From the NCBI GenBank assembly GCA_036504955.1, contig DASXUI010000097.1, positions 1-60,874 on the forward strand: a stretch of 60,874 nucleotides of DNA. The letters are read 5' to 3'. Every line of letters starts with the position of its first letter. Position 1 is the stretch's first letter. Origin of the DNA: Armatimonadota bacterium. Its GTDB lineage: Bacteria > Armatimonadota > DTGP01 > DASXUI01. The position numbers and the translations under genes are program-made. A model generated the notes under the pieces. It searched no databases, was not told where the DNA came from, and was given only the letters and a program-made list of their open reading frames with translations. This document shows positions 11,649 through 27,400 of this stretch, piece after piece.

Positions 11649-12755
11649 CTAGGCGCCCTTCAGGCCGAGGTACTGGCTCAGGTCCTCCAGGGCCTGTGCC
11701 TGCCGCTTCTGCAGCACCTCCACGTAGACCCGCTCCGTCACGGCGGTGCCGCTGTGGCCCAGGAGCCGACTCACCACCTCCATCGACTGGCCCGAGTCGA
11801 ACTGGAGGGTGGCGAAGGTCTTCCGGAGGTCGTGAAGCCGAACCTCCTTCGTCAGCCCCGCCGCCTCCCGCACCTGGCCCCACAGGCGCTCGATGCTGCT
11901 GTCCCCGAGCTGCTTCCCGCCGCGACCGGGGAAGAGGTAGCCCTCGTCGCTCCATGTGGGGTCGAAGCGTCGCTGGAGCTGCGCCAACTGGTGCGCTCTC
12001 AGCCGAGGCAGCAGGGACTCCGGAACCTGCAGGGTGCGCCGACTGGTGGCGCTCTTCGTGCCCTGCACCTCCAGGGCGCCGGTCGTGAGGTCGAGGTGCT
12101 GCCACTGGAGGCGGAGCAGCTCGCCGCGGCGCAGGCCCAGCAGCAGAGCCAGGATGAACAGGAGCCCCATCGGGTGCTCCTCGCAGACACCCAGGAGGGT
12201 GATGGCCTGCTCTCGCGTCAGCGCGACGTGCTCATAGGTCGCGCCTCGCGGTGTGTCGGCGCGGGAGGCCGCGTTGTAGGGCACCAGCGACAGCTTCACC
12301 GCTCGCCCCAGGGCGGCCCGGATGGTGGCCTTGATGAGCCGCAGGGTGTTGTCCGCCGCGCCACCCTGAGCCGCGTGCCTCAGCATCCGATCCACGTCCT
12401 GCGGCAGCACCTGGGCGAGGCGCTTCCGGCCCAGCGCCGGCAGGATGTGGACCCGGCACATCTGGTCATAGTTGCGCCAGGTGTCGGGCGCCCGCTCTCG
12501 CTTCACCACCTCCAACCACTCGGCCAGGAACTGCGCGAAGGGCTGCAGGGCGCCGGAGGTATCCACTCCCATCTGCAGGTCCTTCACCGCGTTGGAGAGC
12601 AGCCTCCGTGCCTCTGCCCTCGTGTTCCGCTTAGGCGGGCAGTACAGGACCCGGCGCTTACCCTCCAGGTCCCGATAGGAGGCGCAGTAGCGCCCGTCGC
12701 TGGCCCGCTGGTAAACACTCCCCTCCCCGTTGCCACGTCTTCCCGCCTTGCCCAT
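11649..12755 (-). CDS. int: tyrosine recombinase / phage integrase
   Basis: N-terminal GSVYQRASDGRY.. SAM-like arm-binding region. C-terminal catalytic region HDLRKTFATL...LLGHSGTAVTERVY (R..HxxR..Y). ATG 12755 has GGGAGG 4 nt upstream; the track starts 6 codons earlier at GTG 12773. Confidence 0.95.
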   Translation of the reverse strand: MGKAGRRGNGEGSVYQRASDGRYCASYRDLEGKRRVLYCPPKRNTRAEARRLLSNAVKDLQMGVDTSGALQPFAQFLAEWLEVVKRERAPDTWRNYDQMCRVHILPALGRKRLAQVLPQDVDRMLRHAAQGGAADNTLRLIKATIRAALGRAVKLSLVPYNAASRADTPRGATYEHVALTREQAITLLGVCEEHPMGLLFILALLLGLRRGELLRLQWQHLDLTTGALEVQGTKSATSRRTLQVPESLLPRLRAHQLAQLQRRFDPTWSDEGYLFPGRGGKQLGDSSIERLWGQVREAAGLTKEVRLHDLRKTFATLQFDSGQSMEVVSRLLGHSGTAVTERVYVEVLQKRQAQALEDLSQYLGLKGA

Positions 12756-12784
12756 CGCGCCTCCCAATCCCACCTTGGCGGGCG

Positions 12785-13055
12785 ATGGGAGGGCTCCTGC
12801 CGGGCCTTCACCCTGACGGAGACGCTGGTGGTGCTGGTCGCCCTCGCCCTCCTGCTGGCGCTGCTGCTGCCCTCCCTGCTGGGCTGCAAGCGGGCGGCGG
12901 AGGCGGTGGTGGCGCGCGAGAGCCAGCGGCAGGACGGGTTGGCGTACCTGGCGCGGGAGGGCGGGCGGTACTCGGGCGCCGGGTGGGCGTGGGAGCAGCG
13001 TGTGGAGGGGGACGCGGAGAGCACGGAGCCCTACGAGTGGCAGCCGTGCTGGTGA
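12785..13055 (+). pseudogene. prepilin-type N-terminal domain protein, 1-nt out of frame with its only ATG
   Basis: The frame ending at 13055 encodes ..CRAFTLTETLVVLVALALLLALLLPSLLGCKRAAEAVV.., a class III prepilin signal and hydrophobic helix, but has no ATG/GTG/TTG upstream. The ATG at 12785 is in the adjacent frame. Removing one base restores either MGGLLPG/FTLTE or MEGSCRA/FTLTE. Confidence 0.6.
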
Positions 13056-14341: not shown

Positions 14342-14824
14342 ATGCTAGACGAGGTAACGCTAGGTGCGCGAGAGGCGGTACTGGACCGGCTGAGGGAGTT
14401 CTACTCCGAACAGATCGTGATGGCGATGGCCCAGGCCGCTAGCGGAGACGCTAGACGCGATGCGACGCCCTGGGAGCTCGCCCTACAACACAGGGAAGAG
14501 CTCTACATGAACCCTTGGCTCAGGGCGGAGTTCGCGGCCCTGGAGGGCATCACGCCACACCAGGTCAACACGCTCATGGCCTCTGAGCATCTCTATTCGG
14601 GGAGCCTCGAGATCAGCAGGGGCGAGCTCACGGCCACTCTTCACAGGAACACGACTCTGACGGAGGAGGGTCCCTGGTCCGTGTGGTGGCGCCGAGGCGC
14701 AGGAGCGGAGAGGGTGACGTGGCACTCCTCCCTAGAGGACGCCTGGCGGGCCGCCAGATCAGGACAGCCCCCAACACCCTCTAGCCCCCCACCACCAACC
14801 GCAGCACCGCCGCCACGTCCCTGA
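14342..14824 (+). CDS. hypothetical protein
   Basis: ATG 14342 is preceded by GGAAGGAG (the track ORF starts earlier at 14228). 160 aa with a Pro-rich tail. The 3' end overlaps the convergent dockerin gene by 44 nt. Confidence 0.45.
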   Translation: MLDEVTLGAREAVLDRLREFYSEQIVMAMAQAASGDARRDATPWELALQHREELYMNPWLRAEFAALEGITPHQVNTLMASEHLYSGSLEISRGELTATLHRNTTLTEEGPWSVWWRRGAGAERVTWHSSLEDAWRAARSGQPPTPSSPPPPTAAPPPRP

Positions 14825-15428
14825 CGTCCACCCGACCATCCCCGTTCACGTCCGCCGGGCCCGCGCCACAGGGGCTCGGCGGAACCCCTGTCACCAGGTA
14901 CAGCCCTATCGCCTGCGCGTCCGCCAGCGTCACCCGCCCGTCGCCGTTCATGTCTCCGACCTGACAACCTGGCACCCTCAACGCCACCGTCGGCAGCAGC
15001 CCCACGTCTCGGACCTCAGCCCCGTAGAGGTCCGTCATCACCACTGAGGCGGGCCGCACGGTGTAGCTGTGGCCCGGTGGCGCGTCGGCCGGCACCTGTA
15101 GGCGCAGGGTCAGCATCGGACCGCCGGACCCCTGGCCGGGGTAGCTGGCCAACGCCACGTGCAGCGGGTCGGCCGTGCCCTGGGCGCACTGCCAGCCGAC
15201 CCCTACCCCTACGGGCGACCAGGTCGGCGACGTCAGGGCGGGGATGCCGGGTGTGTCCGGGGTCACCGTAACCTGCAGCTCCAGGCCTGTGATGATGCAA
15301 TCCACCATGCCGGGCAGGCTGTAGGTCACCACGGCCGCTGAGCCGGGAGTGACAGCGGAGACGGTGGCGGTGATGGGCTTGGGTGCGAAGGACAGCGCTA
15401 GCAGCGCCACCAGGGGTGCCAGGTTCAT
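14781..15428 (-). CDS. secreted cohesin-like + dockerin (type I repeat) domain protein
   Basis: Signal peptide MNLAPLVALLALSFAPKP, then a beta-rich cohesin-like domain, then two EF-hand dockerin repeats GDMNGDGRVTLADAQ and DVNGDGRVDVRDVAAVLRLVVGG. Start/stop ATGA overlap with the sigma factor gene. Confidence 0.7.
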   Translation of the reverse strand: MNLAPLVALLALSFAPKPITATVSAVTPGSAAVVTYSLPGMVDCIITGLELQVTVTPDTPGIPALTSPTWSPVGVGVGWQCAQGTADPLHVALASYPGQGSGGPMLTLRLQVPADAPPGHSYTVRPASVVMTDLYGAEVRDVGLLPTVALRVPGCQVGDMNGDGRVTLADAQAIGLYLVTGVPPSPCGAGPADVNGDGRVDVRDVAAVLRLVVGG

Positions 15429-16042
15429 CGAAGGACCTCCTGTAACCGTATCCGGGCGCGCTTGCGGAGTCGCCAGGCCTGCTGCTCAGAGCAGCCGAGG
15501 CGCCGACCCGCCTCCGCCATCGTGTAGCCCTCGGCCGATAAGCTGCAGACGGCTCGTTCCGCGGGCGGGAGGCGCCCAAGCTCCGATCGGAGCACCACTA
15601 GTCGGGGAATGGGGATGCGGGTATCGGCAGGTTCGGAGAGGCGTTCCCCGCACTCGCTCACATAGGGGTCGTCCAGAGAGAGCACCTGGCGTAACGCCAA
15701 GGGGGTGCCCTCCGGGTCCGACCCGGAGTAGCGCTCCTGCACCCAGGCGGCGACGCGGACTAGGGAGCCGCGGTCCCGCAGGGCGTGCAGGATGGCGCCC
15801 TGGGCCTGCTTGTAGGCGAAGGTGAGGAACTGCGCGCGACGCTCTGGGTTGAAGGCCTGGATAGCCTGAAGGATGCCCAGGGCGCCCTCCTGGTAGAGGT
15901 CTTCGCTCGGCGTGCCGGTGCCCCCGTAGCGGTTCGAGAGCCGAGTAAGGAGGGGATGCAGCACCGACAGAACCGCCGCCTTGGCCTCCTGGTCGCCGGC
16001 CTGCGCCCGCAGCGCCAGGGCAGTCAGTGCCTCGGGGCGCAC
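15425..16042 (-). CDS. sigma-70 family RNA polymerase sigma factor (regions 2 and 4)
   Basis: Region 2 DLYQEGALGILQAIQAFNPERRAQFLTFAYKQAQGAILHALRD and region 4 HTH LPPAERAVCSLSAEGYTMAEAGRRLGCSEQQAWRLRKRA. I place the start at GTG 16042. The 397-aa track ORF's N-terminus is a shadow over the amidase gene. Confidence 0.8.
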   Translation of the reverse strand: MRPEALTALALRAQAGDQEAKAAVLSVLHPLLTRLSNRYGGTGTPSEDLYQEGALGILQAIQAFNPERRAQFLTFAYKQAQGAILHALRDRGSLVRVAAWVQERYSGSDPEGTPLALRQVLSLDDPYVSECGERLSEPADTRIPIPRLVVLRSELGRLPPAERAVCSLSAEGYTMAEAGRRLGCSEQQAWRLRKRARIRLQEVLR

Positions 16043-16584
16043 AGCAGGGGCCTCGCCCAGGGTTGGGCCAGCAGGACGGCGCCGCGAAGGTCCGAGCGGT
16101 CCAGGCTGTTGCCGGGACAGCTCTTGTGGGCCTCTGGGAAGTCCCGGTGGAAGTGAAGATGGCTGATCGGGAGCCCGTAGCGCTCCATCAGGCCGCCCAG
16201 CAGCCCCAGGGTGGCGTGCCGCTGGAGCCCCTCCAGCACGTCGTGCCCCCGGTCGAAGTTCCCCACCATGGACACGGCCACACAGTGCCGGTTGGCCTCC
16301 TGGTCGCTGTTGGCGTTCAGCACAGGCGCCAGGTCCACAAAGGGCGCGTAGATGACGCCTCCGGGACTGACCAGCAGGTGGTACCCAGGCGGGCGCTCCC
16401 AGCCCTCCCGCTGGCGCCGCTCCTCCCAGTAGGAGAGCATCCCCGAGACGCTCGGGTCGCCCTTCCACTGGGCATGGGTGGGCGCGGAGGTGTGGTGCAG
16501 CACCACGCCGTTGATGTGCCTCCCGCCGTCGTTCAGAGCGCGCAACGACGGCAGGAGGTCTTCGACCCGCAGCCAGCGGTTCAC
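16024..16584 (-). CDS. N-acetylmuramoyl-L-alanine amidase endolysin (amidase_2/PGRP, T7-lysozyme type)
   Basis: VVLHHTSAP and HFHRDFPEAHKSCPGNS zinc-ligand motifs. GTG 16584 overlaps the holin stop (GTGA). Confidence 0.85.
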   Translation of the reverse strand: MNRWLRVEDLLPSLRALNDGGRHINGVVLHHTSAPTHAQWKGDPSVSGMLSYWEERRQREGWERPPGYHLLVSPGGVIYAPFVDLAPVLNANSDQEANRHCVAVSMVGNFDRGHDVLEGLQRHATLGLLGGLMERYGLPISHLHFHRDFPEAHKSCPGNSLDRSDLRGAVLLAQPWARPLLCAPRH

Positions 16585-16766
16585 CTCTCGTAGGTGCCCT
16601 GCTGCACCTTGGCCGCATCGATCTTGCTCTGGCCGTAGATGAGCGTCCAGGCGGTACCGGCGGCGAGGGCGGCGGCCTCCTTCAGGCTCAGGCCGTGGCC
16701 CATGGCGCCAAAGAACGCGCCGGCGATGGTCAACAGGCCGAGGGTCCACTTCTTGCTGATCTTCAT
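16581..16766 (-). CDS. holin-like small membrane protein
   Basis: 61 aa from ATG 16766 (GAGGAG upstream). Hydrophobic segments WTLGLLTIAGAFFGAMG and AAALAAGTAWTLIYG, directly upstream of the amidase. Confidence 0.55.
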   Translation of the reverse strand: MKISKKWTLGLLTIAGAFFGAMGHGLSLKEAAALAAGTAWTLIYGQSKIDAAKVQQGTYER

Positions 16767-16774
16767 CTCACTCC

Positions 16775-17110
16775 TCACTTTCCTAGAACGTGGTTGCCAC
16801 CCACCTGGAAGAGGTAGATGGCTATCCCTACCAGCAGGGTAAGCACTGCCCCGCTGACGCGCTCCACCCAGGGGTTCGGGCGCCGGGCCTCCGCCTGGGC
16901 TGCTTGGAGCTGGTCGATCCGTGAGGACATGCCGTCCATGCGAGCGGACATCCCCGCGACAGTGATACAGACCGACTGGAGCTGCCCCCCTTGGTGCTCC
17001 TGTCGCGTCTCGATACGGCCGATGGCATCGCCCAGACTGCCTGCTAGCGTGCGGGCCACTGCCGCGTCCTCCCGCGCCTTCCCGTTCACAGCTCCGTCGG
17101 TCGGTACCAT
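16775..17110 (-). CDS. XhlA-like lysis-associated membrane protein
   Basis: 111 aa with an N-terminal coiled coil and a C-terminal TM VSGAVLTLLVGIAIYLFQV. The order XhlA-like, holin, amidase mirrors the PBSX xhlA-xhlB-xlyA cassette. Confidence 0.5.
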   Translation of the reverse strand: MVPTDGAVNGKAREDAAVARTLAGSLGDAIGRIETRQEHQGGQLQSVCITVAGMSARMDGMSSRIDQLQAAQAEARRPNPWVERVSGAVLTLLVGIAIYLFQVGGNHVLGK

Positions 17111-17129
17111 CTAGCTCCCCCCAGGCATG

Positions 17130-17160
17130 AAAAAGGCGGCTCGGTCAGTGACCGTCCGCC
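17130..17160 (-). terminator. rho-independent terminator between the Skp-like gene and the lysis cassette
   Basis: The minus strand reads GGCGGACGGTCACTGACCGAGCCGCC (nested GGCGG/CCGCC and CGGTC/GACCG stems) followed by TTTTT, 20 nt before the XhlA-like ATG. Confidence 0.6.
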
Positions 17161-17206
17161 GTCTGCGCAACTATCGATCTATCAGATCATATGGATCGAT
17201 GGATCC

Positions 17207-17743
17207 CTACTTCGCCTTCTTCAGCGCCTCCACTACCTGCGCCGTCACGTCACGCCCGCCGGCCCAGCATAGCTCGGCGTCCACAAGGGCCGCCAGCCCC
17301 TCCGCAGCCAGCACCACCCCACACGCAGCCCGCAACGCGCTCCGGGCTTCCGCGTCCGCCGCCTGCTGGCGCTGGGCCAGCTCGCGGTTCAGCCGCGCCT
17401 CCAGCGCCTTGAGCTGCTGAGCGATGCCGTCGTGCTTCTCCTGCAACACCGTTCGGGCGACGCTTTGGCCCGAGGGCAGCTTGCGGATCTCCGCCTTCAG
17501 CCGCGCCTGCTCCTTCGCCGCCGCGTTGCGTGCGTCGTTGAACTCCTTGTCCGCCGCCTCCTTGGCCGCCTTCAGCGCCTGCTGTGTGGCAGGCAGGCCC
17601 GGCCAGGCGCTCAGCGCCCTCCGTGCGTCCAGGGTGCCGATAGCCGGCCCGTCCGCCGCCCACAGGCGCGGGAGGGGGGTGCCCAGCAGCAGCAGGGCGA
17701 GGGCGGCCGCGACGCCGCCACCGATGCGCGTTCGTGTGCTCGT
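17207..17743 (-). CDS. OmpH/Skp-like periplasmic chaperone homologue (start codon unresolved)
   Basis: My translation gives (ACG)STRTRIGGGVAAALALLLLGTPLPRLWA/ADGPAIGTLD...coiled coil...LRAACGVVLAAEGLAALVDAELCWAGGRDVTAQVVEALKKAK. This is collinear with E. coli Skp (ADKIAIVN... and ...DLVVDANAVAY..DIT..V). GGAGG lies 5 nt upstream of ACG 17743. The first ATG/GTG/TTG in frame is not until 17449. Confidence 0.6.
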   Translation of the reverse strand, partial: TSTRTRIGGGVAAALALLLLGTPLPRLWAADGPAIGTLDARRALSAWPGLPATQQALKAAKEAADKEFNDARNAAAKEQARLKAEIRKLPSGQSVARTVLQEKHDGIAQQLKALEARLNRELAQRQQAADAEARSALRAACGVVLAAEGLAALVDAELCWAGGRDVTAQVVEALKKAK

Positions 17744-17753
17744 GGTTGCCTCC

Positions 17754-20700
17754 TTATGAGCCTGTGTAGCCTGTAATGATGCCGCCTACGACCGTGATGG
17801 TCCCGGTTGCCGTGGTGATGGAGCCAGACCAGCCTGCTGTAGTCGCGTAGCCGCGAACCACCGCAAAGCTACTGCTCGTCTTGATGACTCCCGATGCCCC
17901 GATGGTCCCGGTAACCTCGATCGCCGCGTCAGCGCTGCTTGCCGCGTTGACCCGGATGCCCATTCCGGCTGAGCTGAGTTGCTGCACCTGTAGCGAGGGA
18001 TATGAACTACTGGCCGTGCAGAACACAGTGCCGTTGGGGCCGTAGGACAGGCTGCTGTCGTAGAGACCCCACCCATCGCTGGGGTTCGAGGTTAGCTGGC
18101 TGACGAACGGGAAAATGCCGTTCGAGATGCCAGCCCTTACCACTGAGTTGGTGTTGGTCAGGCTCTTCCAGCTCCGCACCCCCGCCGCCGTGCTGCTCAG
18201 CACCATCCCGTCGGTGGCGGGATTGCCGAGGCCCGGCTCCTTGCCAGCGAAGGAGTTGTAGGTGCCGCTTGCCAGCATCCCGTCGTGCGTGCTGTCCGCG
18301 TACTGACTGCTCAACGCTTGGCCGGCCAGCGTGAGCCCTCCGGAGGACGCGCCTAGCGTCACCGCCGAGTGGAACCGCGCATCGTTGCCCTGCGCCGCCG
18401 TGCCCGCCGTGGATCCATAGGTCACGGAGACCTGTTGCCCCGATAGGCTGACGCCAGCCCCTGCGGTCACCGCGTCATGAAAGCGGCTATCGTTACCCTG
18501 GGCAGAGGTGCCCGCCGTGGTGCCGTAGGTCACGCTCACCTGCTGCCCCGAGAGCCCGATGCCCGTCCCGGCCGTCACCGCCGCGTGCCGCTGGCTGATG
18601 GCGCTCGTGAGGTCCGCCGTCGCCGCCACGATGCTCAGCGCCCCCGTAGTCGCCGTCGCCCCCACCACCCCGCCGGCCGAGAGGTTGGGCAACAGCACAC
18701 TGGAGCCGGCCCCGTTCGCGGTCAGCGACAGGTTGCCGTTGGAGGAGGAGAGGGAGAGGCGTCCACTTGGCAACGCTTGCAGGTTGTAGAGGCCGGCGCC
18801 TTGGTCCCACAGGAAGAAGCTGTTGTCGTCAGCTTGCTTGCCCAGCGTCCACTTGGCGACAGCGGCATCGGCGAAGGTCAGGAACGCCTGGTAGGTGTTC
18901 GCCACCGGCGTATTGAGGATCAGGTTCGCCGCCCCGGACCCCAGGATCTTGGCCCCCAGCATCGACGTGACGCCGACGGCATCCACGCTCAGGGCGGGGT
19001 CAGGGCTCCCGCCCGAGGCAGCGAGACTGCTGTGGACGTGCCCCAGGAGGCTGTACCGCGTGTCGTGGTTGTGGGGTCCGTCCGCCACTTGGCCCACGCC
19101 TGGCCCCACGGAGAGGCCGAAGGTGCCGGTCGTGCCGTTGTAGGTCAGGGGCGCGGTGGCGCTCACCAGCCCCCGCACGCCCGCCGTGAAGGGCTGCCAG
19201 GTCCGGTCGCCCCTCAGATACGAGGTCCAGTCCCCGCCGGCAGGCAGGCCCTCCTTGGCGTTGAGTTGCGCTTGGATGCCGGAGGTCACCCCGTCTAGGC
19301 GCCCCAGCTCCGTCATATCCACCGCCGCCGGCCAGCCGGAGAGGTCGCTCGCCGCCGCCCCGCCCGAGAGGGTGCCGCCGGCGCTCTTCACGACGCCGGA
19401 GACGATGCTCGGCACCGCCAGCACTCCGGCAGCGTCCAGTGTGGCCTTGGGGGCGCCCGTGTTGGTGTAGATCGCCAGCGGGTTGCTGATGGCGTCCGAC
19501 CCCAGCCTGTTGGTGGCGGTCCCGTCGATCGTTTGGCCCAGCATCCAGTTCGCGCCGGCCCGCACCGCCTGCCCCTGCGGCAGGGAGAGACCCCCAGCCG
19601 TGGCCTCCAGGCTTCCCGCCTTGGCCGCGCCCGTCACCCACAGCCCGCCTGTCTGGCTGGCCGCTGGCGTCGCGGCCTGCAGCTGCACCTGCGGCACGTT
19701 GGCGAGCTGGTCGAGCCCCAGATTGACGCGCGCTCCGGCCGCCGTCCCGGCTCCGGTACCGCCGCTGATTACCGGGAGGAGCCCGCCCACCTGGGAGGCC
19801 AGATTGACGGCGCTCGACGAGTAGAGGTGGCCGCTGCTGTCAGCCATCAGGAACCCGCCCGTACCGATCAGGTCCGCGAGGATGAGGCTGCCCTTGGTGG
19901 CGTGGCTGGTGCTGCCGAGGGTGAGGTTGCCGCTCGCGACGTTGCTCCCGTACAGCGTCTGCCCGGAGCCGCGCCCCGCCAGGCGCGCGTATTGGGTGTG
20001 GTAGTCGCCCACGTCCGGGCCCGTCACGTCCGCATGGGCCACCGCGCCACCGAAGCTGACCCAGGCGGTGCCGTTGAAGACGTAGGATTTCGCCTCGTCG
20101 CCCACCAGCAGCGCGAGGTTGGTGGTCTGAGCACCACTGGCGGGCGTGAAAGTCCAGGCGGCGCCGCTCCACTCAGCGATGGCGTTGTCATGCGTGGCCC
20201 AGGCGCCCGTACCCGTGGGCCACACGATGTAACGTTGGCCCACCGCGGGGGTGCCAGGGGGCGTCGATAGGTCCTTGTCCAGGACCGACGCCGCCCAGGT
20301 GATGCCGGAGGCGCGGCTGTCTACGTAGGCCATCGTGGCGGCATCGCTGCCCGCCGAGGGGGTGCCGAGCCCGGTGATGCGGTACCCGCCCGCCGGCAGG
20401 TTGCCGGTCAGGGCGCGCCCGCCGTCGGCCCGCAGGTAGAGGGGATGATCGTCGGCCGTCAGGCCCGAGAGGCCGCTGTGGGGCAGCGTGGGCAGCGCCG
20501 TGCTGGCGATATGGCCGTCCGCCACCGTCAACGCCACGCCGCCGCTGCCCGCGTACAGGATGCCCGCCGTGGTCAGGGTGCCGGCGAAATACCCGTTGCC
20601 GGCCGCGCTCACCGTGAAGCGACCGACTCCGGAGGAGCTGTCGAGACTCAGCCCGTTGGCGACAGTGGAGCTGCCCAGGGTGATGAGGTTGGTACCGGCC

Positions 20701-21014
20701 GCCTGCGACAGGAGGTGCTGAGTGCCGTTGGCCCGCACGCTCCCCGCGCCGAGGTACAGGTGGCCGCCCGTGCCGATCGTCAGGCTCGCGGCCCGTACCA
20801 TCGGCGTGTCGGTGGCAACGCCCAGCACCTCCACACTGCCGGAGGTCTGCACGCGCAGCACGTTCGCGCCGTCCACGGTCGGGCGCACCAAGTGGGATCC
20901 GGTCTCCAGGTTGATAGTTGAGCGTACCTGTCTGCCGCTGTCCACCACGAAGTCCGCCCAGGAGGGCGAGACGAGGCAGGCAAGGGCGAGTAGAGCAAGG
21001 GACAGACGCCGCAT
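17754..21014 (-). CDS. tail fibre-like protein with Sec-type N-terminal signal sequence
   Basis: 1086 aa in the fibre position downstream of Tal. Fibre motifs LTADDHPLYLRADGGRALTGNL..ITGLGTPSAGSDAATMAYVDS and repeated ..YG.TAGT.AQGND.RFH. AGGAGG lies 5 nt before ATG 21014. The N-terminus is MRRLSLALLALACLVSPSWA/DF. Confidence 0.75.
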   Translation of the reverse strand: MRRLSLALLALACLVSPSWADFVVDSGRQVRSTINLETGSHLVRPTVDGANVLRVQTSGSVEVLGVATDTPMVRAASLTIGTGGHLYLGAGSVRANGTQHLLSQAAGTNLITLGSSTVANGLSLDSSSGVGRFTVSAAGNGYFAGTLTTAGILYAGSGGVALTVADGHIASTALPTLPHSGLSGLTADDHPLYLRADGGRALTGNLPAGGYRITGLGTPSAGSDAATMAYVDSRASGITWAASVLDKDLSTPPGTPAVGQRYIVWPTGTGAWATHDNAIAEWSGAAWTFTPASGAQTTNLALLVGDEAKSYVFNGTAWVSFGGAVAHADVTGPDVGDYHTQYARLAGRGSGQTLYGSNVASGNLTLGSTSHATKGSLILADLIGTGGFLMADSSGHLYSSSAVNLASQVGGLLPVISGGTGAGTAAGARVNLGLDQLANVPQVQLQAATPAASQTGGLWVTGAAKAGSLEATAGGLSLPQGQAVRAGANWMLGQTIDGTATNRLGSDAISNPLAIYTNTGAPKATLDAAGVLAVPSIVSGVVKSAGGTLSGGAAASDLSGWPAAVDMTELGRLDGVTSGIQAQLNAKEGLPAGGDWTSYLRGDRTWQPFTAGVRGLVSATAPLTYNGTTGTFGLSVGPGVGQVADGPHNHDTRYSLLGHVHSSLAASGGSPDPALSVDAVGVTSMLGAKILGSGAANLILNTPVANTYQAFLTFADAAVAKWTLGKQADDNSFFLWDQGAGLYNLQALPSGRLSLSSSNGNLSLTANGAGSSVLLPNLSAGGVVGATATTGALSIVAATADLTSAISQRHAAVTAGTGIGLSGQQVSVTYGTTAGTSAQGNDSRFHDAVTAGAGVSLSGQQVSVTYGSTAGTAAQGNDARFHSAVTLGASSGGLTLAGQALSSQYADSTHDGMLASGTYNSFAGKEPGLGNPATDGMVLSSTAAGVRSWKSLTNTNSVVRAGISNGIFPFVSQLTSNPSDGWGLYDSSLSYGPNGTVFCTASSSYPSLQVQQLSSAGMGIRVNAASSADAAIEVTGTIGASGVIKTSSSFAVVRGYATTAGWSGSITTATGTITVVGGIITGYTGS
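18358..18573 (-). repeat. 2 x 108-bp in-frame tandem repeat (plus partial third) inside the fibre gene
   Basis: Units start at 18358, 18466 and 18574 (GTCACCGC...). They encode H.AVTAG.G..LSGQQVSVTYG.TAGT.AQGND.RF. Confidence 0.85.
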
Positions 21015-21015: not shown

Positions 21016-23634
21016 TTAGCCTCCTGGGGTGAACTCGACGGTCACCACCTGATCGAGGATCGGGTGGCAACCGGCCGCGAAGGTGATCGTGTAGTCGGAG
21101 ATCGACCATTCCTTGATGGGGATGTGGTAGTTCTTGCCGACCCAGACGCGCACTAGCGTTCCCGGTATCGGTGCCTTGGGCGTTACCCCGTCGGAGGCAT
21201 ACAGCGTGAGGGTCCGAGTGCCGCCCGCCAGGGTGTCCGGGTTGGCGTCCCAGGTCCGGGCGTACACTCCGGGCTCGCTCGGCCCGTACTGCGCCAGAAC
21301 GGGCAGCGTGCTGCTGCCAGGGTCTCCGGTCGGCACGCTGTTGCCCGGAGTGCTGACCAGGTTGGAGCCTCCCCGGTGCCCGCCGCCCCCGCCCCGCCCC
21401 TTCTTGCCGCCGAGGGCGTAGAGCAACAACAGCGCCGGGTCCGGACGCCGGTTGTCCAGGTCCAGGTCGCAGCGCTCCCCGCCGTGCTCGGCCATCGTGT
21501 ACTGCACGCGGGTGGGGTAGCTGATTAGGGGCACCGTCAGCCCGTCCACCCGCACCAGGCCGGTGGTCGCCAGGGCGTCCGTGGAGGTGTCCACCTGGCA
21601 CACCAGCGTGTCGGCCGGATCGATGCTCACCTGCCCGGTTCGGACGGGCGAGGCATAGCGGTTGAGCCAGCCGGCCGCGTAGGCCCGCGCCTGTTTCAGG
21701 GTGGTGATCTCCTCGGCGTCCACCACCTTCTCCCGCAGACCGTAGGTGCTGATGCTGGCCTGCGCCGCGGCGGAGAGGGCGCCCGCGCCCGTGGTCGGCA
21801 GCGCCACGGCCGGCGTCGCGTTGTCGCCCCGGAACACCCATTCGCAGGTTTCGCCGGGCATGAACTCGTCGTCACCCGCTACCCCATCCTCGCGGAGCAT
21901 ACAGCAGTCCACGTCCAGCACTCCGGCGGAGCAGACGGCCAGCGCCGCCCGAAGGCCGGTGGCGTGCTCGTTGCCCTCCGTGACGATCACCGCCTTGATG
22001 CGCTGCCAGGTCCCTAGCCCGTTGGTCACCACCGTGTTCCCGCTCATGGGCAGCCAATGCTTGACCGACCCGCCAGGGTCGTCCACGTAGAGGCCGAGGC
22101 TCACCGTCATGGCGGTGGAGCTGCGAAGCCAGAAGTAGAGGGCGAACGCCGTGTACTTGCGGAAGGGCGACCCGTGGTCGTTCGTTGGGATCAGCGTGAC
22201 CTTGCGGCCGCCGTAGCTCAGCACCTTGCCCGTGGTGTCGATCCGCACGCAGGAGGAGCCATACAGGGGCGACGCGTTGCAGCTCCAGTCCACCGGCACG
22301 TCGGTGACCAGCTTCTTGGCGTCGGTATCGTACAGCACCCAGCCGTCCTGGCTGGTTTTGTCGCCCCGGAACAGCCACAGGTCGTCCAGGAGGATGCCGG
22401 TGGTGCCCGCCGTCCAAGTCACCGTTACCTTGATGTACTTGGCCGTCGTGAGGGCGGCCGCGACATGGAACACCTCGCGGTGCTCCTGGTAGCTGCGCCA
22501 GGTAACGCCGAAGCTGCCATTGATGGGCGTGGCCAGCACGGCCAGGGCCGCGTTCAACACCTCCACCTTCACGCCGACCGTCGCGCTGCCCGCGACCCAG
22601 AGGGCCGTGTTCAGCAGGAACAGGAAGGGGGTGTCGGCGCCCACCAGGAGTTGCGCGCTCACGTCCACCGTCTGGGCCACGCTGCTGCCCGCCACGGAGC
22701 CCAGGATGGCGACGTAGTTGCCGGACCGCGCGTAGGCACCGCTCCACCGCTCGGAGGGCCGCTTGCGGGCGTCCCCCGTCTCCACCCAGGGGTCGGAGGC
22801 GTTATGGTGCCACACGGTGCCCGTCTCGAAGGACGGGTCGATCAGCAGGTTGCCCGCAACCGTCTCGCCGGGAAGCAGGGCTTGAGCGAACCGGCTGTTG
22901 TAGACCGTGTTTCCCGCCGCCCCCGCGTTGCCGCCGACCAGTTTGATCGCGTTGACGACCCCCGCCAGGTCCTCCGGCTGCGCCAGATAGGTGACCTCTC
23001 GGCCGGCGCGGAAGCGGTAGTCCTCCAGCGTGACGGCGATGGGCATCGCCCGCACGTACAGCACGTTCCCGCCGCCCGTTGGGTCCACGGCGAAGCCCCA
23101 CAGCAATCCGCGCATGGAGGCGTCGGCCAGCTTGTCGAAGGCGGCCCGGAGGTCGGTATCGAAGAACTCGGCGCGCTCCAGCGTGTAGCCGATGGGCGTG
23201 TCGATGCTGACCGTGAGGCCCGGAAGGGCCGGCAGCAGGTAGCGGTGGGCGAGCTGGGCGAAGAACTCGCTCACGTCGGCGCCGCCGGCCTTGACGATGG
23301 CGGAGTCCACCAGGAGAGTGCCGCAGCGCCCCATTAGGCCGCAGCCGGTCAGCGTGAGGCTCGGGGTATCCTGCAGGCTCCGCTCCACCTGCTCCACCCA
23401 GCCGCGGTAAACGCACGCGCTGCCCCACCAGAACTCCACGCGCCAGTTGCTGGCGGGCATCGCGCCCAGCAGGGCCGTGATCTCCACGTCCTCATAGGCC
23501 GCCACCAGGTCCAGTGTGAAGGTGTCGCACCCGCCCCGCTCGGTCAGGATGAAGTCACGGGAGAGCACCCAGGCGCGCGGGCACGGAACGCGGGTGCCAG
23601 CCGCCGTGTAGAGCCTTGTCTCGAAGGCGAGCAT
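21016..23634 (-). CDS. tail-associated (Tal-like) baseplate/tip protein with CBM4_9-like carbohydrate-binding modules
   Basis: 872 aa immediately after Dit. The N-terminal siphovirus tail-tip region is followed by NLLIDPSFETGTVWHH...ILLDDLWLF-type CBM blocks. Confidence 0.65.
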   Translation of the reverse strand: MLAFETRLYTAAGTRVPCPRAWVLSRDFILTERGGCDTFTLDLVAAYEDVEITALLGAMPASNWRVEFWWGSACVYRGWVEQVERSLQDTPSLTLTGCGLMGRCGTLLVDSAIVKAGGADVSEFFAQLAHRYLLPALPGLTVSIDTPIGYTLERAEFFDTDLRAAFDKLADASMRGLLWGFAVDPTGGGNVLYVRAMPIAVTLEDYRFRAGREVTYLAQPEDLAGVVNAIKLVGGNAGAAGNTVYNSRFAQALLPGETVAGNLLIDPSFETGTVWHHNASDPWVETGDARKRPSERWSGAYARSGNYVAILGSVAGSSVAQTVDVSAQLLVGADTPFLFLLNTALWVAGSATVGVKVEVLNAALAVLATPINGSFGVTWRSYQEHREVFHVAAALTTAKYIKVTVTWTAGTTGILLDDLWLFRGDKTSQDGWVLYDTDAKKLVTDVPVDWSCNASPLYGSSCVRIDTTGKVLSYGGRKVTLIPTNDHGSPFRKYTAFALYFWLRSSTAMTVSLGLYVDDPGGSVKHWLPMSGNTVVTNGLGTWQRIKAVIVTEGNEHATGLRAALAVCSAGVLDVDCCMLREDGVAGDDEFMPGETCEWVFRGDNATPAVALPTTGAGALSAAAQASISTYGLREKVVDAEEITTLKQARAYAAGWLNRYASPVRTGQVSIDPADTLVCQVDTSTDALATTGLVRVDGLTVPLISYPTRVQYTMAEHGGERCDLDLDNRRPDPALLLLYALGGKKGRGGGGGHRGGSNLVSTPGNSVPTGDPGSSTLPVLAQYGPSEPGVYARTWDANPDTLAGGTRTLTLYASDGVTPKAPIPGTLVRVWVGKNYHIPIKEWSISDYTITFAAGCHPILDQVVTVEFTPGG

Positions 23635-24407
23635 TAGAGGTAGCGTCCGCGCCAGGTGGTGATAAGGCTCGCCAGGGTCAGGGGCGCGGCAAAGGTCAGC
23701 ACCAGGTTGTTACTGCCGGGGATGAGGCCGAAGAAGCTGCCCGCCGTCAGGAGGCTCAGGGCGTTGGCGCCGTTGCGCGTCACCGTCTGCGCCAGGGCGT
23801 CCACCACCAGCACGTCGCCGGCCGTGAAGGTCCCGGTGAGGGTGAAGGACTTGACCGGCGAGGGGCTGGAGCGCTGCAGCACGATCGTTCCGGTCCCGCC
23901 CACGCCGATCGTGAGGGTGTAGGCTGGCAGGGCCTCCGCCGTCCCGGTGGCGATGACGTTGTGGCCGGGCGCGCCCGCCGCCGGGGTCAGGACGGTATCG
24001 GTGCTCGCGAGGGCCGCGTACAGGTAGGGGTCCGGGCAGCGGAAGTGCGCCTCAAAGGTGCAGGTGTTCTTCATCCGGTTGTTGAGCCCGATCGTTGGCA
24101 GCCCCACCGGGCAGGCGCGTCGATACCGATCGTCCCAGCGGTAGAGGTTGGCGTAGCCGGTGCCGGGGTTGTGGGCCGCCAGGAAGGCATCGAGGGCCGA
24201 CCGCCAGAGGGCCGCGCTGGAGGCGGAGATGCGCCCCGAAACCGTCACCTCGCGAGGTCCCAGCAGCGCCTGCGTCTCCCGCGCCCGGTCGCTGCCCGGC
24301 ACCGCGATCGCCTCGCCCCGGTCCCCAATCCGCTCCTGCCAGTCGCTGACATGGGCGCTGTTGGAGGCGTAGACGTAGCTGCCAAACTGGTAGGCCAGGC
24401 TTGCCAT
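23634..24407 (-). CDS. distal tail protein (Dit)-like
   Basis: 257 aa. Called from its position directly after the tape measure gene and from its size. Confidence 0.6.
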   Translation of the reverse strand: MASLAYQFGSYVYASNSAHVSDWQERIGDRGEAIAVPGSDRARETQALLGPREVTVSGRISASSAALWRSALDAFLAAHNPGTGYANLYRWDDRYRRACPVGLPTIGLNNRMKNTCTFEAHFRCPDPYLYAALASTDTVLTPAAGAPGHNVIATGTAEALPAYTLTIGVGGTGTIVLQRSSPSPVKSFTLTGTFTAGDVLVVDALAQTVTRNGANALSLLTAGSFFGLIPGSNNLVLTFAAPLTLASLITTWRGRYL

Positions 24408-24418: not shown

Positions 24419-27400
24419 CTAAGCGGCGGTGGGAGCGGTGCGGAGGGAGCGGCGGAAGGCGTCGGCCAGTTCCGCGCCCACCTGGCGCGCGCCCTCGCGC
24501 CCGTGGACGTGGACGGTCCCCATGTTGATGGTCACGGAGGTGCCGGTGAGCTGCTCGTTGGGGATGATGGTGCCGGAGTTGCGAGGCAGGAAGAGCTCTG
24601 GCCCGCGCTCGCCCACGATGGCGGCTTGACCACGCGCCAGCGTCCCTCCCTCGGCCATCAGGGGGATGCCGAAGAGGCCTCCGAGAAAGCCGACCACCTT
24701 CTTGGCCGCGACCTCCGCGATTATCTGAAGGATCATGTCCTTGAAGCCGCCCAGAAGAGTGCTGAACATGCCCTTGGCGCCCTTGCCGATGTTAAGGAAG
24801 CCCTGAGCGAAGATTGCCTGCATGTCCTGGCTGGTGCGGGCCCAGAACTCCTGATTGGCCCGCTGCTCAGGGGTCCTGTTCCGCTTGGCGGCTTCCTTGT
24901 TCGCTCGCGCCACTCTGTCGGACTCGATGGCCGCGACCTTCTCAGAGTCGAAGCTGAGCCCAGAGGCGCCAGGGCCGACGTTCCCGTAGCTGCTCCCCTC
25001 GGGCGTTCTGTGGCGCTCCATAATGCGCTCTACGTAGGCATCGGCCATCTTCGCGGCGATGCGCTCGGAGTCCACGTTGCCCTGAGCCCACTCGGGAATG
25101 GGGAGGTTGTCCCCAACCAGGGCCGGACGCACCGGAACCGCCATCTCCGCCTGGCGCAGTTCACGGCGCCGCCATTCGAACCGTGCCGGGCTCGGAGGCC
25201 CCATCTCGTCGCCCAAGCCCTGCAGCGACTTCAGCCGGGATTCCGCCGTCCATCGACGCGCGACGTCCTCCGGGACCCCCTTCTTGCGGAAGTAGAGCTC
25301 CAGGTCCGCCAAGCGGTCCTCAAAGTCGCGCTGGAAGTCGGTCTCGCGGGCGGCCAGGTTCGCCTTCAGGGCCTCCATGTAGCGCTTGCGTGCCGCTTCG
25401 GACTCCCGAGCCGTCTTCTTGAGGGCGTCCCTCTCCTTCTGGGCCGCCTCCCGCTGGATCTTCTGGATGTCGCGCCCGAGCTCGGCCTCCAGGCTGCTGA
25501 TCGCCTGATGCTGCTTGGCCGTGGACAGAGCGGAGGCCCGGATCTCATCGACCTTGACGCGGGTGGCCTCGCGGCGCACGGCGATCTCCCGTCTGGTGTC
25601 ATCGGAGATGCCGGCAATGACGGAGTCACGGTAGAGCTTGTCTGCCTTGCGCGCCTCCTCAACGTCAGCGGCAGCCTTGGCGGCCCACGCCTCGCGGTTC
25701 TTGTTGGCGTGGGCGAGCTGCTCCCAGTTGCTGGAGCCGCCAGGCGCGGCCAGATGAAGGTGCTCGTTCCACTTTGAGCTCTTGGTCCTGAAGGCATATC
25801 CCAGACCTGCCGCCTCCAGCGCCTGCTGTACCGTGGAGCGCTGGGCTTCTGACCACCCCTTGGTATCAACGTCCAAGGAGTGCCCGGTCTTGTGGGTGTA
25901 CTTGCTTAGCTCGTCGAAAGGGTGAACCCCTCGCGTAGTATGGCTCTCAAGCAGTTTCCTCACGTTGGCTGGCAACTGCTTGAGCATAGAGGATAACTCG
26001 GTCGCAACATAGACGCTACCGACTTTGGCATAGCCGCCGCGCTGAGAGAGGTCCTTACTGGCCGCCTCCATGCGTCGCTGGAGCTCGCTCTGCAGCTTCT
26101 GAAGCAGGGGGGATCCCTTAGGCAGGCCATAGGGATCGGCGATGCCCAGAGCCTTGGCGGCCCTCTCGATCTCGACCATGGCTGGCTGCCCCACGCCGCT
26201 GTCTGTGAGTGCTTGCTTTCTTAGGGTGCTTCTGGTCTCCTCCAGGGCGGCGCCCGACATGCCAGGCATGTAGGCAGGCATAGCACGCGACGGCCAGCCC
26301 TTCTCGCGAGCGTCCCTAACGCCCCAAATGGCCTCACGCAGCACGCCCGCGCGGTTCCCGCCTGCGGTGTCTCGCTCCTTCTCGGCCGCCTTCCACTTGT
26401 CGTAGGCGTCCTTGCCCTCCGTGAGCAGCTTGTAGATCCCCAGGGTTGCCAGTGAGTACAGGCCGAACCGCGCGGCCGCGGCTGCCTGCGGGATCTCCGC
26501 GAGGATGGTCTTGACGCGCATCAGGCGATCAGCCACGGTCACGAAGCTGGAGGCCAGCAGCAGCGCCCCGCCCACTAGGCCCGCCGTCGATCCAAGTCCG
26601 GTACCCAGGGACACCAGGAGGTCCTGCGCCCCACTGCTGAGACCACGGAACCACTCGATGGCCTTCCGGGCCGTCTCGGACAGTCGCAGCATCGTGTCGC
26701 CCAGGGCGTCGAAGGGTGCCCTGAGGGCCGTCATGGCCTGCGCGTCCTGGGTGAGGGCTGTAAAACTCTTCAGGATGGTTCCCAGCGCCTTGGTGATGTC
26801 GGGCGTGAACTTGGACGTCAGGCGTGACGTGAACTCATTGAAGGCGTCCCCGAAGTTGGACAGGATCATCGGGAGCGTGCCGGCCAACTTCTGCTGGGCT
26901 CCGCCGAACTGCTGCTGCATGCCCGCCACCAGGGCATCAGCGACCTGCTGGCCGGTGACATGCGCCCGCTGCAGGGCCTCCGTGTCAGCCGTGCCAAAGC
27001 GTCTCTTGAGCACACCCGCCACGTTGAGGCCAGGCATGTTGAGCAGTACCTGGTTGAGGTCCTGCTGAGACGCAGAGCCGCGAGAGAGGATCTGCCGGAA
27101 GCCCAGCAGGGCCCGCTCCTGAGCGTCTCGCGAGATTCCCAGGGCCGTGGCGGTGTCCCCGAAGGCCCTCATGGTTGGGATGACCTTGCCCAAGCCGTTA
27201 GGCCCATAGGCGGCCGCCAGGCTCTGGGCGATCGGCAGCATCTCCTTGAACTCCAGACGGGAGGACAGCGCCTCCCGGCGGAGGTCTTTGATGAGCTTCG
27301 CGGCGCCCCCAGAGGAGCCGGTGATGAGTGTCAGGGCGGCCTGAGTCTGAGTCAGGGTCACGTTCATGTCGGTGCCACTCTTGGCAACCGCCGCCATTCC

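Follow-up and report, generated by a model that had tools for sequence, protein, structure and literature searches.

A Skp/OmpH homologue encoded directly after a fibre-like gene with a predicted signal peptide at the end of a prophage tail operon

The tail operon of a prophage in an uncultured soil bacterium, a diderm that probably belongs to the Armatimonadota, is closed by two minus-strand genes (Table 1) that encode a fibre-like protein with a predicted signal peptide and a Skp/OmpH homologue. Beyond the window analysed here (the whole 60,874-nt stretch of DNA), the arrangement recurs in two further phage lineages, so a chance origin is implausible. Tentatively, giving it not quite an even chance, we read the pair as a Sec-exported fibre and a phage-borne periplasmic holdase that keeps hold of it.

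Table 1. Features of the fibre–Skp region, in window coordinates
Feature	Position	Strand	Details and basis
Lysis cassette	16024..17110	(-)	directly downstream of terminator
Intrinsic terminator closing tail operon	17130..17160	(-)	RNA fold
Skp/OmpH-family gene	17207..17743	(-)	178 codons from ACG; PF03938, AF2, Foldseek
Predicted signal peptide, Skp-like protein	17657..17743	(-)	(M)STRTR / IGGGVAAALALLLLG / TPLPRLWA, cleavage before ADGP
ACG at start-codon position, Skp-like gene	17741..17743	(-)	5 nt past GGAGG
Junction TAAGGAGG	17749..17756	(-)	fibre stop codon overlaps Skp-like Shine-Dalgarno; sequence read
Fibre-like gene	17754..21014	(-)	1086-aa precursor, ATG at 21014..21012; ORF list, DUF2793
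DUF2793 domain of fibre (aa 242-319)	20058..20291	(-)	Pfam PF10983, E 5.6e-13
Predicted Sec-type signal peptide, fibre	20955..21014	(-)	MRR / LSLALLALACLV / SPSWA, cleavage before DF; sequence features
Shine-Dalgarno AGGAGG, fibre gene	21020..21025	(-)	5 nt 5' of ATG, spacer CTAAG; read from sequence
Tal-position gene	21016..23634	(-)	872 aa, stop TAA 21018..21016; adjoins fibre gene upstream
Dit	23634..24407	(-)	PF22768, phrog_33; upstream of Tal-position gene
TMP	24419..27829	(-)	upstream of Dit

The gene after the fibre had been taken for a Skp homologue in the initial annotation, and profile and predicted fold agree that its product is a true member of the Skp/OmpH family. The Pfam OmpH match spans profile positions 2-141 of 141 (E 1.3e-11, 45.3 bits, cut-off 32.4 bits), and the AF2 model (pLDDT 92.4) consists of N- and C-terminal strands and a long helical hairpin. 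Foldseek placed 4kqt first (OmpH-like, TM 0.77), then the Skp structures 1sg2 and 1u2m, with 8gl8 (SkpA of a type 9 secretion system, T9SS) also among the top matches. The protein reads ..WA/ADGPAIGTLD...ALVDAELCWAGGRDVTAQVVEALKKAK. It shares with the chaperones of E. coli (Skp 1SG2, 1U2M) and Caulobacter (CC_1914, 4KQT) the full-length PF03938 profile, a small beta body with a long helical hairpin (here predicted), an N-terminal signal peptide, a mature mass of ∼15–18 kDa and a basic pI: the predicted mature form has 149 aa and pI 9.3, the phage proteins fall at 9.3-9.8, and two cellular OmpH/Skp relatives computed alongside have 9.0 and 9.8. Unlike these chaperones, it is encoded at the tail-operon end of a prophage and not in bamA-skp-lpxD (the context of its nearest cellular relative), begins at ACG, is only ∼30% identical to the cellular homologues found, and has a fibre rather than a beta-barrel as its presumed client. 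Trimer formation and holdase activity are putative for the phage protein. A phage-borne Skp was also said to be unusual, which fits the lack of any PHROG family match and of any tblastn hit in 50,697 phage genomes. Spanin and Tfa-type identities were considered for this protein as well; OmpH profile and predicted fold rule them out.

The fibre assignment of the 1086-aa protein and its start, which had been placed behind AGGAGG at 5-nt spacing and 1 nt past the Tal stop, both stand. The protein carries DUF2793, the only portion shared with known phages, and matches the PHROG 'tail fiber protein'; in the related locus L001 the fibre ATG has GGGAG 6 nt upstream. Its predicted mature form has 1066 aa, 105 kDa, pI 5.8 and 1 Cys. 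An Armatimonadota MAG encodes a 1205-aa protein with 55-59% identity to it, and identity to a relative runs at 50-70% over the proximal two thirds and 28-31% over the distal third. The structure model has a pLDDT of 30.6, which we count against an exported fibre, and no barrel or anchor domain was found in the protein. The neighbouring Tal-position gene, named from position only as it has no Pfam or PHROG match, is 42% identical to an 882-aa gene in L001.

The fibre N-terminus, MRRLSLALLALACLVSPSWA/DF, has every sequence feature of a Sec/SPase I signal, as first proposed, including an n-region charge of +2 and an h-region with a mean Kyte-Doolittle value of 3.03. These features are kept in L001, whose counterpart is MRRIALLLAMACGPTWA/YS. 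Between the window and L001, the sole relative with a fibre start (the L066-L068 contigs are all cut), the signal-like stretch is 60% identical and the next 29 residues 14%, which argues that the signal is under selection. Of the ∼60 DUF2793 proteins encoded in the loci fetched, those of the window and L001/L002 alone have such an N-terminus; it is absent from the ∼55 others, and among the same loci the Skp-like gene is likewise confined to the window and L001/L002. The signal-like fibre N-terminus thus tracks the Skp gene. Predicted signals across the prophage and its relatives all end in x-W-A or x-W-G, as if one peptidase cuts them all. A further suggestion, that the N-terminus is a baseplate-docking helix, loses ground on two counts: the h-region LSLALLALACLV lacks a polar face, and the x-W-A ending is common to the other predicted signals of the prophage.

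These observations bear on an alternative that we consider unlikely, namely that an ordinary virion fibre is assembled in the cytoplasm with its N-terminus unused for export, while the Skp-like protein acts independently of it, as an exported accessory, on host outer-membrane proteins (OMPs). It could capture the receptor porin or other OMP precursors so that fewer receptors are displayed, giving superinfection exclusion and keeping progeny off debris, in the manner of the T5 Llp and Cor lipoproteins, whose genes neighbour receptor-binding genes. OMPs are established Skp clients, the low output expected from ACG fits a modulator more readily than a chaperone needed in stoichiometric amounts, and there are familiar cases of exported receptor-blocking proteins encoded beside receptor-binding protein (RBP) genes (T5 llp, phi80/N15 cor, lambda lom). 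To our knowledge, moreover, the fibres of tailed phages fold and attach in the cytoplasm, and we know of no route from periplasm to virion. However, an accessory of this kind leaves unexplained why the fibre N-terminus resembles the other signals of the prophage, is conserved unlike the adjacent linker and is found only with the Skp gene; MRR followed by a 12-residue purely hydrophobic core would not be expected to evade SRP/Sec; and a late-operon site tightly coupled to the fibre stop is odd, as exclusion genes are usually expressed from the prophage.

A survey of relatives showed the fibre and Skp genes to be a conserved unit. The order of fibre, TAAGGAGG, signal-bearing Skp, terminator and lysis genes is common to three phage lineages (the window, L001/L002 and L066-L068) whose Skp proteins are 33-46% identical, that of the window being 45% identical to the L001/L002 protein and 33% to the L066-L068 protein. 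The Skp-like signals of the relatives read ..YALAACGLLVPLIAYLCTLWG/RP in L001 and MRLIGITLAALLLACVATWA/ADAP in L067, and the L066-L068 fibre fragment has the C-terminal ..IT..GGIIT motif of the window. All three lineages may go back to one ancestral event. The intrinsic terminator that had been noted after the Skp-like gene was recovered as a hairpin, GGCGG-A-CGGUC-ACU-GACCG-AG-CCGCC, with U5 and a centroid of –16.4 kcal/mol. It is almost identical in L001 despite diverged flanking genes, and L067 has an equivalent hairpin and T-run 3' of its Skp-like gene. The lysis cassette beyond it encodes a coiled-coil protein (111 aa, TM segment at the C-terminus), a holin-like membrane protein (65 aa) and an Amidase_2 endolysin; in L001 and L066-68 lysis genes likewise lie 3' of the Skp-like gene.

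Given this neighbourhood, the Skp-like protein could itself be a lysis component, a membrane-tethered or periplasmic coiled coil that helps to break the outer membrane in place of a spanin. Its gene sits immediately 5' of the holin/amidase cassette in three lineages, the cassette has no recognised spanin, and the long helices behind a hydrophobic N-terminal segment recall i-spanin topology. We consider this very unlikely, as in all three lineages the conserved terminator lies between the Skp-like gene and the lysis genes and places the former in the fibre operon, the Skp profile and fold include the terminal strands of the trimer body, and there is no embedded or adjacent ORF for an o-spanin-like lipoprotein.

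The start of the Skp-like gene is peculiar. Past the fibre stop the window reads TAAGGAGG-CAACC-ACG, and no ATG, GTG or TTG precedes the signal peptide in this frame; the first canonical start is a GTG at 17449, codon 112 of the open frame. The junction is TAGAAGGAGG in L001, which also has ACG, 6 nt past GGAGG, with no canonical start after the fibre stop, and TAAGGAGG in L067, where an ATG lies 4 nt past GGAGG; two of the three lineages thus have ACG at the start position and one has ATG. The missing canonical start was absent from the initial annotation. It qualifies the signal peptide proposed there for the Skp-like protein: the signal-like sequence is present, but its use requires a non-canonical start, here ACG. 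In E. coli, ACG initiates translation very poorly, and the supply of Skp-like protein may accordingly be small relative to a 105-kDa client needing several trimers.

It is conceivable, then, that the gene is dead, its ATG mutated to ACG, or that it is expressed only through a +1 frameshift that extends the fibre. The canonical start is indeed absent, and both in the window and in L001 the Skp-like gene lies in the +1 frame with respect to the fibre gene. We find this hardly credible, since ACG stands at start-codon spacing behind a strong Shine-Dalgarno in two lineages only 45% identical, with ATG at that position in the third; the frame is unbroken, its indels being net in-frame, and has a GC3 of 0.86 over its whole length; and the full-length OmpH profile and confident fold are retained. 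A frameshift product would moreover bury the signal peptide behind 1086 residues. The dN/dS of the gene, a saturated estimate, is only ∼0.6, and we count this against the exported fibre with its holdase.

Under that preferred reading, the last two tail-operon genes would form one functional module. The fibre, 105 kDa when mature, would be synthesised as a precursor bearing a Sec/SPase I signal and moved into the periplasm, and the next gene would supply a Skp/OmpH-family holdase with its own signal peptide. Ribosomes finishing the fibre would start Skp at ACG from the strong ribosome-binding site overlapping the fibre stop, presumably at a fixed yield lower than that of the fibre. A basic Skp trimer would then hold the long, acidic, aggregation-prone fibre chains in the periplasm until they trimerise. 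By the time the holin/amidase cassette opens the cell, fibres would already be in the envelope and could from there attach to released particles or cover receptors on envelope and debris. From the sequences we infer that both signals work and that the fibre is exported; binding of Skp to the fibre and the efficiency of ACG use are likewise assumed in this scheme, as is the final role of the exported fibre.

Several known systems share parts of the scheme. The slot directly after a fibre gene is the usual site of a fibre chaperone gene. Like phage Skp, the tail-fibre chaperones (lambda/P2 Tfa, T4 gp38, gp57A) are encoded directly 3' of the fibre gene, co-transcribed with it and conserved with it across lineages; they have no sequence or fold relation to phage Skp and are cytoplasmic without a signal peptide, whereas phage Skp is a putative holdase of periplasmic type. 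T5 Llp, phi80/N15 Cor and lambda Lom resemble it in bearing a signal and lying beside a fibre or RBP gene of a siphovirus infecting diderms, but, being small receptor-blocking or receptor-mimicking lipoproteins or OMPs, are unrelated to Skp, and their phages, unlike the window, have fibres that lack a signal peptide. PblA/PblB of phage SM1 are fibre-like proteins that double as Streptococcus mitis surface adhesins and, like the proposed fibre, reach the cell envelope; they do so without a signal peptide, by holin/lysin-mediated leakage, and unlike the window pair have a monoderm host and no chaperone partner. The Skp clients known so far are outer-membrane beta-barrels and autotransporters. 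The precedent for a different client is SkpA of the Flavobacterium johnsoniae type 9 extended translocon (8GL8, PMC10994853), a Skp homologue outside OMP biogenesis that matches the phage Skp model structurally and is needed to export the giant surface adhesin SprB. Unlike phage Skp, SkpA is built into a Bacteroidota translocon as a permanent structural component, where it holds the SprA N-terminus (PMC10994853). The host phylum differs from that of SkpA, and neither T9SS parts nor a C-terminal T9SS signal were found here.

The SprB precedent also serves the proposal that the pair is cell-surface cargo unconnected with the virion: a fibre-derived adhesin exported by Sec, chaperoned by phage Skp and carried across the outer membrane by a host machine, perhaps a type II secretion or type IV pilus-like system, to be displayed or released and to serve, like PblA/PblB, as a bacterial adhesin. 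The prophage has other predicted exported proteins (a 636-aa SGNH-like protein, BNR, dockerin), the window and L001 have a prepilin-like gene conserved between them, and a pilB-like ATPase gene of the host is situated 4 kb away from the prophage. Yet the fibre is translationally coupled to the Tal-position gene and is the only fibre/RBP candidate of the tail operon, expression that comes late, just ahead of lysis, gives little time for display, no signal for secretion across the outer membrane was found, and the prepilin-like gene of the window has no in-frame start; we regard the proposal as decidedly unlikely.

Possible roles for an exported fibre are late addition to virions, masking of the receptor and adhesion. 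We lean towards a real virion fibre maturing outside the cytoplasm: the tail module has no other candidate for a fibre, the gene is coupled to the Tal-position gene, and the conserved shaft and variable tip of the protein follow the evolutionary pattern of fibres. The recurrence of fibre and Skp in three lineages suggests that part of the life of this fibre takes place outside the cytoplasm.

The gene in the tail-fibre position reads as the initial annotation had described it: AGGAGG stands 5 nt 5' of the ATG, and this ATG lies, as claimed there, 1 nt past the stop of the 872-aa gene in the Tal position. TMP (PF20155), Dit (PF22768, phrog_33), the 872-aa gene and the fibre follow one another in the order of a tail module, and the same TMP, Dit, tip and fibre order is found in L001, a related prophage locus of a second lineage, and in L003, a more distant phage with a DUF2793 fibre. 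The protein belongs to the DUF2793 class (Pfam PF10983, E = 5.6e-13, aa 242-319), matches phrog_7049 'tail fiber protein' in PHROGs and shows repeats of the form VT.G.G..LSGQQVSV.YG...GT.AQGND.RFH. The DUF2793 domain, matched in 51 phage records, is the sole part of the fibre in common with described phages. A whole-fibre AF2 model built on a two-sequence alignment failed, with a pLDDT of 30.6; Pfam, on which the tests for an autotransporter-like anchor or docking domain are based, showed no barrel or anchor domain in the fibre.

Signals recognised by Sec and SPase I have a positive n-region, a hydrophobic h-region of 8-15 residues and small residues at -3 and -1. The fibre N-terminus, MRR-LSLALLALACLV-SPSWA↓DF (arrow, predicted cleavage site), has all three parts (MRR / LSLALLALACLV / S-W-A↓D), with a mean Kyte-Doolittle value of 3.03 over the h-region, and the L001 fibre, which starts MRRIALLLAMACGPTWA↓YS, carries the corresponding segment MRR / IALLLAMAC / T-W-A↓Y. 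A lipobox (A-L-A-C13) is a possible alternative reading of the fibre N-terminus, though with a short h-region. An amphipathic docking helix was rejected, the h-region lacking a polar face. Among about 60 DUF2793 ORFs scanned, a positive n-region followed by a strongly hydrophobic N-terminal core occurs in the window and in L001/L002 only. With its predicted signal, the fibre thus departs from the norm of its class, which is cytoplasmic and without a signal peptide.

Between the fibre of the window and that of L001, identity is 50-70% across aa 1-700 and falls to 28-31% across aa 700-1086, where indels are numerous. At the N-terminus the signal segment is 60% identical, the next 29 residues 14% and residues 50-83 85%; the Tal-position gene, at 42% identity, falls below the fibre shaft in conservation. 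Judged from these alignments, this is how a genuine fibre looks, its shaft conserved and its tip variable, with a conserved predicted signal and a free linker ahead of them.

Proteins of the Skp/OmpH family are basic (pI about 9-10) and periplasmic, carry a cleavable Sec signal and act as homotrimeric, ATP-independent holdases for unfolded clients; a bamA-skp-lpxD neighbourhood is usual for the family without being part of its definition. That the gene following the fibre encodes a Skp homologue, as had been proposed, is supported by both sequence and predicted structure. Its product matches PF03938 with 45.3 bits (cut-off 32.4) over profile positions 2-141 of 141, and a profile made from this protein and its relatives, run against 5.8 billion sequences, retrieved PF03938 proteins only and gave matches of 1e-19 to 1e-21 to crystal structures of Skp/OmpH. 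The AF2 model, a monomer from an alignment that included cellular OmpH sequences, has a pLDDT of 92.4 and shows a short strand at either end, as in the small beta body of Skp, and between them the long hairpin of helices, or 'tentacle' (E11-14, H26-64, H70-124, E128-131); its best Foldseek matches are the OmpH-like protein 4KQT (TM 0.77), E. coli Skp (1SG2 and 1U2M) and the T9SS protein SkpA (8GL8). The pI values of the three phage proteins are 9.26 (mature protein of the window), 9.57 and 9.76, those of two cellular relatives compared 9.0-9.8. A putative signal, with a positive n-region, a hydrophobic core and a site of the form L-W-A↓A, can be read in each of the three lineages; in the window and L001 the start codon ahead of it would be non-canonical. 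While P0011, the nearest cellular relative, stands in a bamA-skp-lpxD context, the phage gene lies between the fibre gene and the lysis cassette in all three lineages. The cellular homologues found reach an identity of just ~30%, and a recent capture of the host skp was rejected on that ground.

Two other assignments had been named beforehand as outcomes that would speak against Skp, namely the fold of a spanin or of a tail-fibre assembly protein; neither was seen, the predicted fold being that of Skp. A spanin is a type II membrane protein with a periplasmic coiled coil, encoded in the lysis cassette together with an embedded or adjacent gene for a small outer membrane lipoprotein. The Skp-like protein does not qualify as one: no lipoprotein-like ORF, and hence no embedded o-spanin, is found in the other frames of its gene or adjoining it, a terminator precedes the lysis genes, and the fold is different. 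Membership in the Tfa/gp38-like families was likewise rejected, with no match to them in Pfam, PHROG or NCBIfam; the gene shares the position of such fibre chaperones but no relation in sequence.

The intrinsic terminator reported after the Skp-like gene was recovered by explicit folding as a GC hairpin that carries a bulge and runs into U5; the built-in terminator scan missed the bulged form. The hairpin and the following CATGCCTGGGGG are ~95% identical between the window and L001, compared with ~60-65% for the flanking coding DNA. Just upstream lies a GATC/ATCGAT-rich AT patch, also remarked on in the initial annotation. No recognisable spanin was found in the lysis cassette, although the host is probably a diderm. 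The Skp-like protein could in principle serve as a lysis accessory, being encoded next to this cassette; the terminator between them and the Skp fold both argue against such a role, which we regard as very unlikely.

The frame of the Skp-like gene spans 193 codons from stop to stop with a GC3 of 0.86, a strong coding signal, and contains no ATG, GTG or TTG before codon 112. The elements listed in the initial annotation are all present; its observation is confirmed, the one correction being that this gene has no canonical start, and its interpretation is partly supported. After the fibre stop the window reads TAAGGAGG-CAACC-ACG and L001 reads TAGAAGGAGG-ACTCAG-ACG, with no canonical start downstream, while the junction in the third lineage (L067) is TAAGGAGG-CTTC-ATG. 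Because the junctions align in this way, ACG occupies the start position in two lineages whose Skp-like proteins are 45% identical, and the ACG of L001 is not an assembly error, since L001 and L002 are two independent assemblies. We read the gene as starting at ACG, aided by a strong RBS and by ribosomes terminating 10 nt upstream. This looks like non-canonical initiation conserved in two lineages, with probable coupling to translation termination in the fibre gene. The public gene call for the window places the start at an ATC six codons later, which has no counterpart in L001. A reading in which the gene is dead, or is fused to the fibre by a frameshift, we find scarcely credible in view of the coding signal and of ACG at the start position in two lineages, and both the +1 fusion and the pseudogene were rejected. 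The dN/dS of the Skp-like gene is ~0.6, a saturated estimate and weak as evidence.

The initial annotation had proposed a survey of related loci for the pair of fibre and Skp-like gene, and the pair turned up in three lineages. L001/L002 run from Dit through an 882-aa gene and a 1205-aa DUF2793 fibre to OmpH, after which come three small lysis-region genes, then a sigma factor and a dockerin protein. The third lineage, L066-L068, comes from three sources, JAKPEZ010001845.1, JGI 3300010338 and ERZ795060, and was recovered by HMMER search; its 188-aa OmpH protein (33% identity, signal MRLIGITLAALLLACVATWA↓ADAP) is encoded directly 3' of the end of a fibre-like gene, a fragment with the same repeat motif and a ..IT.RGGIIT ending, and is followed by a terminator-like hairpin, a holin and an Amidase_2 gene. 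Among about 60 fetched DUF2793 loci, the Skp-like gene is confined to the window and L001/L002, as is a signal-like N-terminus on the DUF2793 protein. In L003 the fibre is without a signal peptide and a GT4 glycosyltransferase gene sits where the Skp-like gene would be.

Relatives of the Skp-like protein are scarce. Among 1.84 billion representatives, an exhaustive HMMER search picked out two relatives that were close or informative, together with a few distant OmpH proteins from cells. Neither the Skp-like protein nor a cellular Skp matched any of 50,697 phage genomes by tblastn, and PHROGs gave only coiled-coil noise, with cellular Skp queries too; the Skp-like protein had no match in NCBIfam, no significant match as a single phmmer query against PDB, and found itself alone in a word-index search. 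The Skp alignment detected no related loci in genome and viral contigs, the fibre, searched against genome, viral and metagenome contigs, brought up DUF2793-domain relatives only, none of them with Skp, and searches with the fibre fragment and Skp of the third lineage did not recover the 5' end of its fibre gene. Full-text literature searches turned up nothing on a Skp encoded by a phage or on a tail fibre exported by Sec. The Skp homology of the L001 protein is already on record, because NCBI automatic annotation calls it 'OmpH family'; the module and its meaning are not.

The window, a contig of bacterial DNA assembled from a soil metagenome, carries a prophage, and the region is present in one public DNA run only, probably the source sample. 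Its prophage encodes RecT, Gam, a terminase, an SPP1-type portal, major head and major tail proteins, TMP and Dit, with the structural genes, both module genes included, on the minus strand. A diderm host of the phylum Armatimonadota is probable, since the nearest relatives of the fibre and the Skp-like gene lie on a contig that NCBI labels as such. Coordinates are collected in the table.

Coordinates of the module and neighbouring features (in the window unless another locus is named)
Feature	Position	Strand	Description
Host genes	1-11.5 kb		isocitrate/isopropylmalate dehydrogenase, glycerate kinase, PilB-type ATPase, GH39-like protein
Host pilB-type ATPase gene	6844..8595
Tyrosine integrase gene	11649..12773
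Prepilin-like gene	12780..13055	+
Prepilin-like gene, L001	11625..12062	-
Dockerin-domain protein	14781..15428	-	signal-like N-terminus
Sigma-70-type factor	15425..16040	-	coupled to dockerin gene, downstream of lysis cassette
Lysis cassette	16024..17110	-	111-aa coiled-coil protein with C-terminal TM; 65-aa holin-like protein; Amidase_2 endolysin
Hairpin plus following conserved sequence	17125..17172	-
The same, L001	~8690..8730
Terminator	17130..17160	-
AT patch	17173..17205
End of Skp-like frame	17207	-
Skp-like start position	17741..17743	-	ACG
Skp-like start position, L001	8102..8104		ACG
Skp-like start position, L067	832..834		ATG
Fibre ORF	17754..21014	-
636-aa protein	31514..33424	-
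BNR/Asp-box protein	44280..45062	-
Prophage end	~56.7 kb
Fibre/GT4 locus, L003	14950..15930		fibre without signal peptide, followed by GT4 glycosyltransferase gene

The fibre is not alone in its predicted signal. A crude scan of the structural genes gave one further strong case, a 636-aa protein whose gene is flanked by the major head gene and the head-tail genes and whose Sec-type signal (MRTHRLSLLFVALSLLFVALTLLWGQAWA↓AT) ends A-W-A↓AT; by its sequence it is a second large, predictedly exported protein within the late operon. It has no PHROG or phage-genome match. By eye, SGNH/GDSL-like blocks (FAGADSY, ECGATNDL, LDQVHF) can be made out in its C-terminal third, and Pfam gives only E = 0.023 for Lipase_GDSL_2. 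The BNR/Asp-box protein carries a signal read by eye (MGKRVVVWGLLALVSVGAAWA↓GE, ending A-W-A↓GE), which the composition filter of the scan skipped, and in L001 the sigma factor and dockerin genes are likewise kept together. Each predicted signal of these phages has an x-W-A or x-W-G ending, which fits one host peptidase specificity and argues that the fibre N-terminus would be the same kind of element. Both prophages also carry a homologous prepilin-like gene (..AFTLTETLVVL..) as conserved cargo, the copy in the window lacking an in-frame ATG, GTG or TTG (the nearest ATG, at 12785, is in another frame). This gene speaks for a module that delivers a secreted adhesin as cargo, perhaps via a host pilus or T2SS-like machine; the position of the fibre at the end of an ordered tail module is that of a virion part, and we consider the adhesin explanation quite improbable.

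Taken together, we tentatively favour, as a serious possibility short of a probable one, a reading in which the fibre would be exported by Sec and served by a phage-supplied Skp-type holdase, both being expressed late from the last genes of the tail operon, with lysis to follow. Gene anatomy, homology, predicted fold and conservation are what the sequences show, while export, the fibre as client of the holdase, the efficiency of ACG and the final role are inferred from them. In textbook tailed-phage assembly all parts, fibres included, are made in the cytoplasm, and all fibre chaperones known to us are cytoplasmic. An ordinary cytoplasmic fibre beside an independent, OMP-directed Skp would agree with this; it would leave the shared signal-like N-terminus and the constant pairing of the two genes as separate matters, and appears to us unlikely. 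The closest functional precedent for the favoured reading is T9SS SkpA, a Skp homologue that serves the export of a giant adhesin (PMC10994853). Phage DGR target proteins are reported to be without signal peptides, unlike the bacterial surface versions (PMC6199706).

As to the final role of a Sec-exported fibre with its own holdase, we lean slightly towards a virion fibre that would mature outside the cytoplasm and join particles at lysis; alternatively, it may mask the receptor or serve as a decoy, both on the envelope and on debris. Since extracytoplasmic fibre maturation is, to our knowledge, unprecedented, we state it apart from the core reading: a tailed phage whose fibres are Sec-exported, folded with the aid of a phage Skp in the periplasm and attached to particles complete in all else only once holin and endolysin open the cell is an unlikely proposition at present.

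A fibre with a predicted signal beside a phage-borne, predicted periplasmic holdase, a pair of genes conserved in three lineages, stands in contrast to textbook cytoplasmic assembly, and its points are testable with cloned genes although the host is uncultured. ACG kept in two lineages and ATG in the third would make the Skp-like gene a rare natural case of non-canonical, termination-coupled initiation in bacteria. If export is true, the phage either finishes a virion part beyond the cytoplasm or sends a copy of its receptor-binding protein into the host envelope, and either outcome bears on receptor handling, exclusion and release in phages of little-known diderm phyla; it would also put the Skp scaffold to a second use other than OMPs, T9SS SkpA being the first. 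Finally, if the extracytoplasmic fibre step itself is true, the combination of a signal-bearing fibre and Skp would mark such a class of phages in diderms beyond the well-studied phyla.
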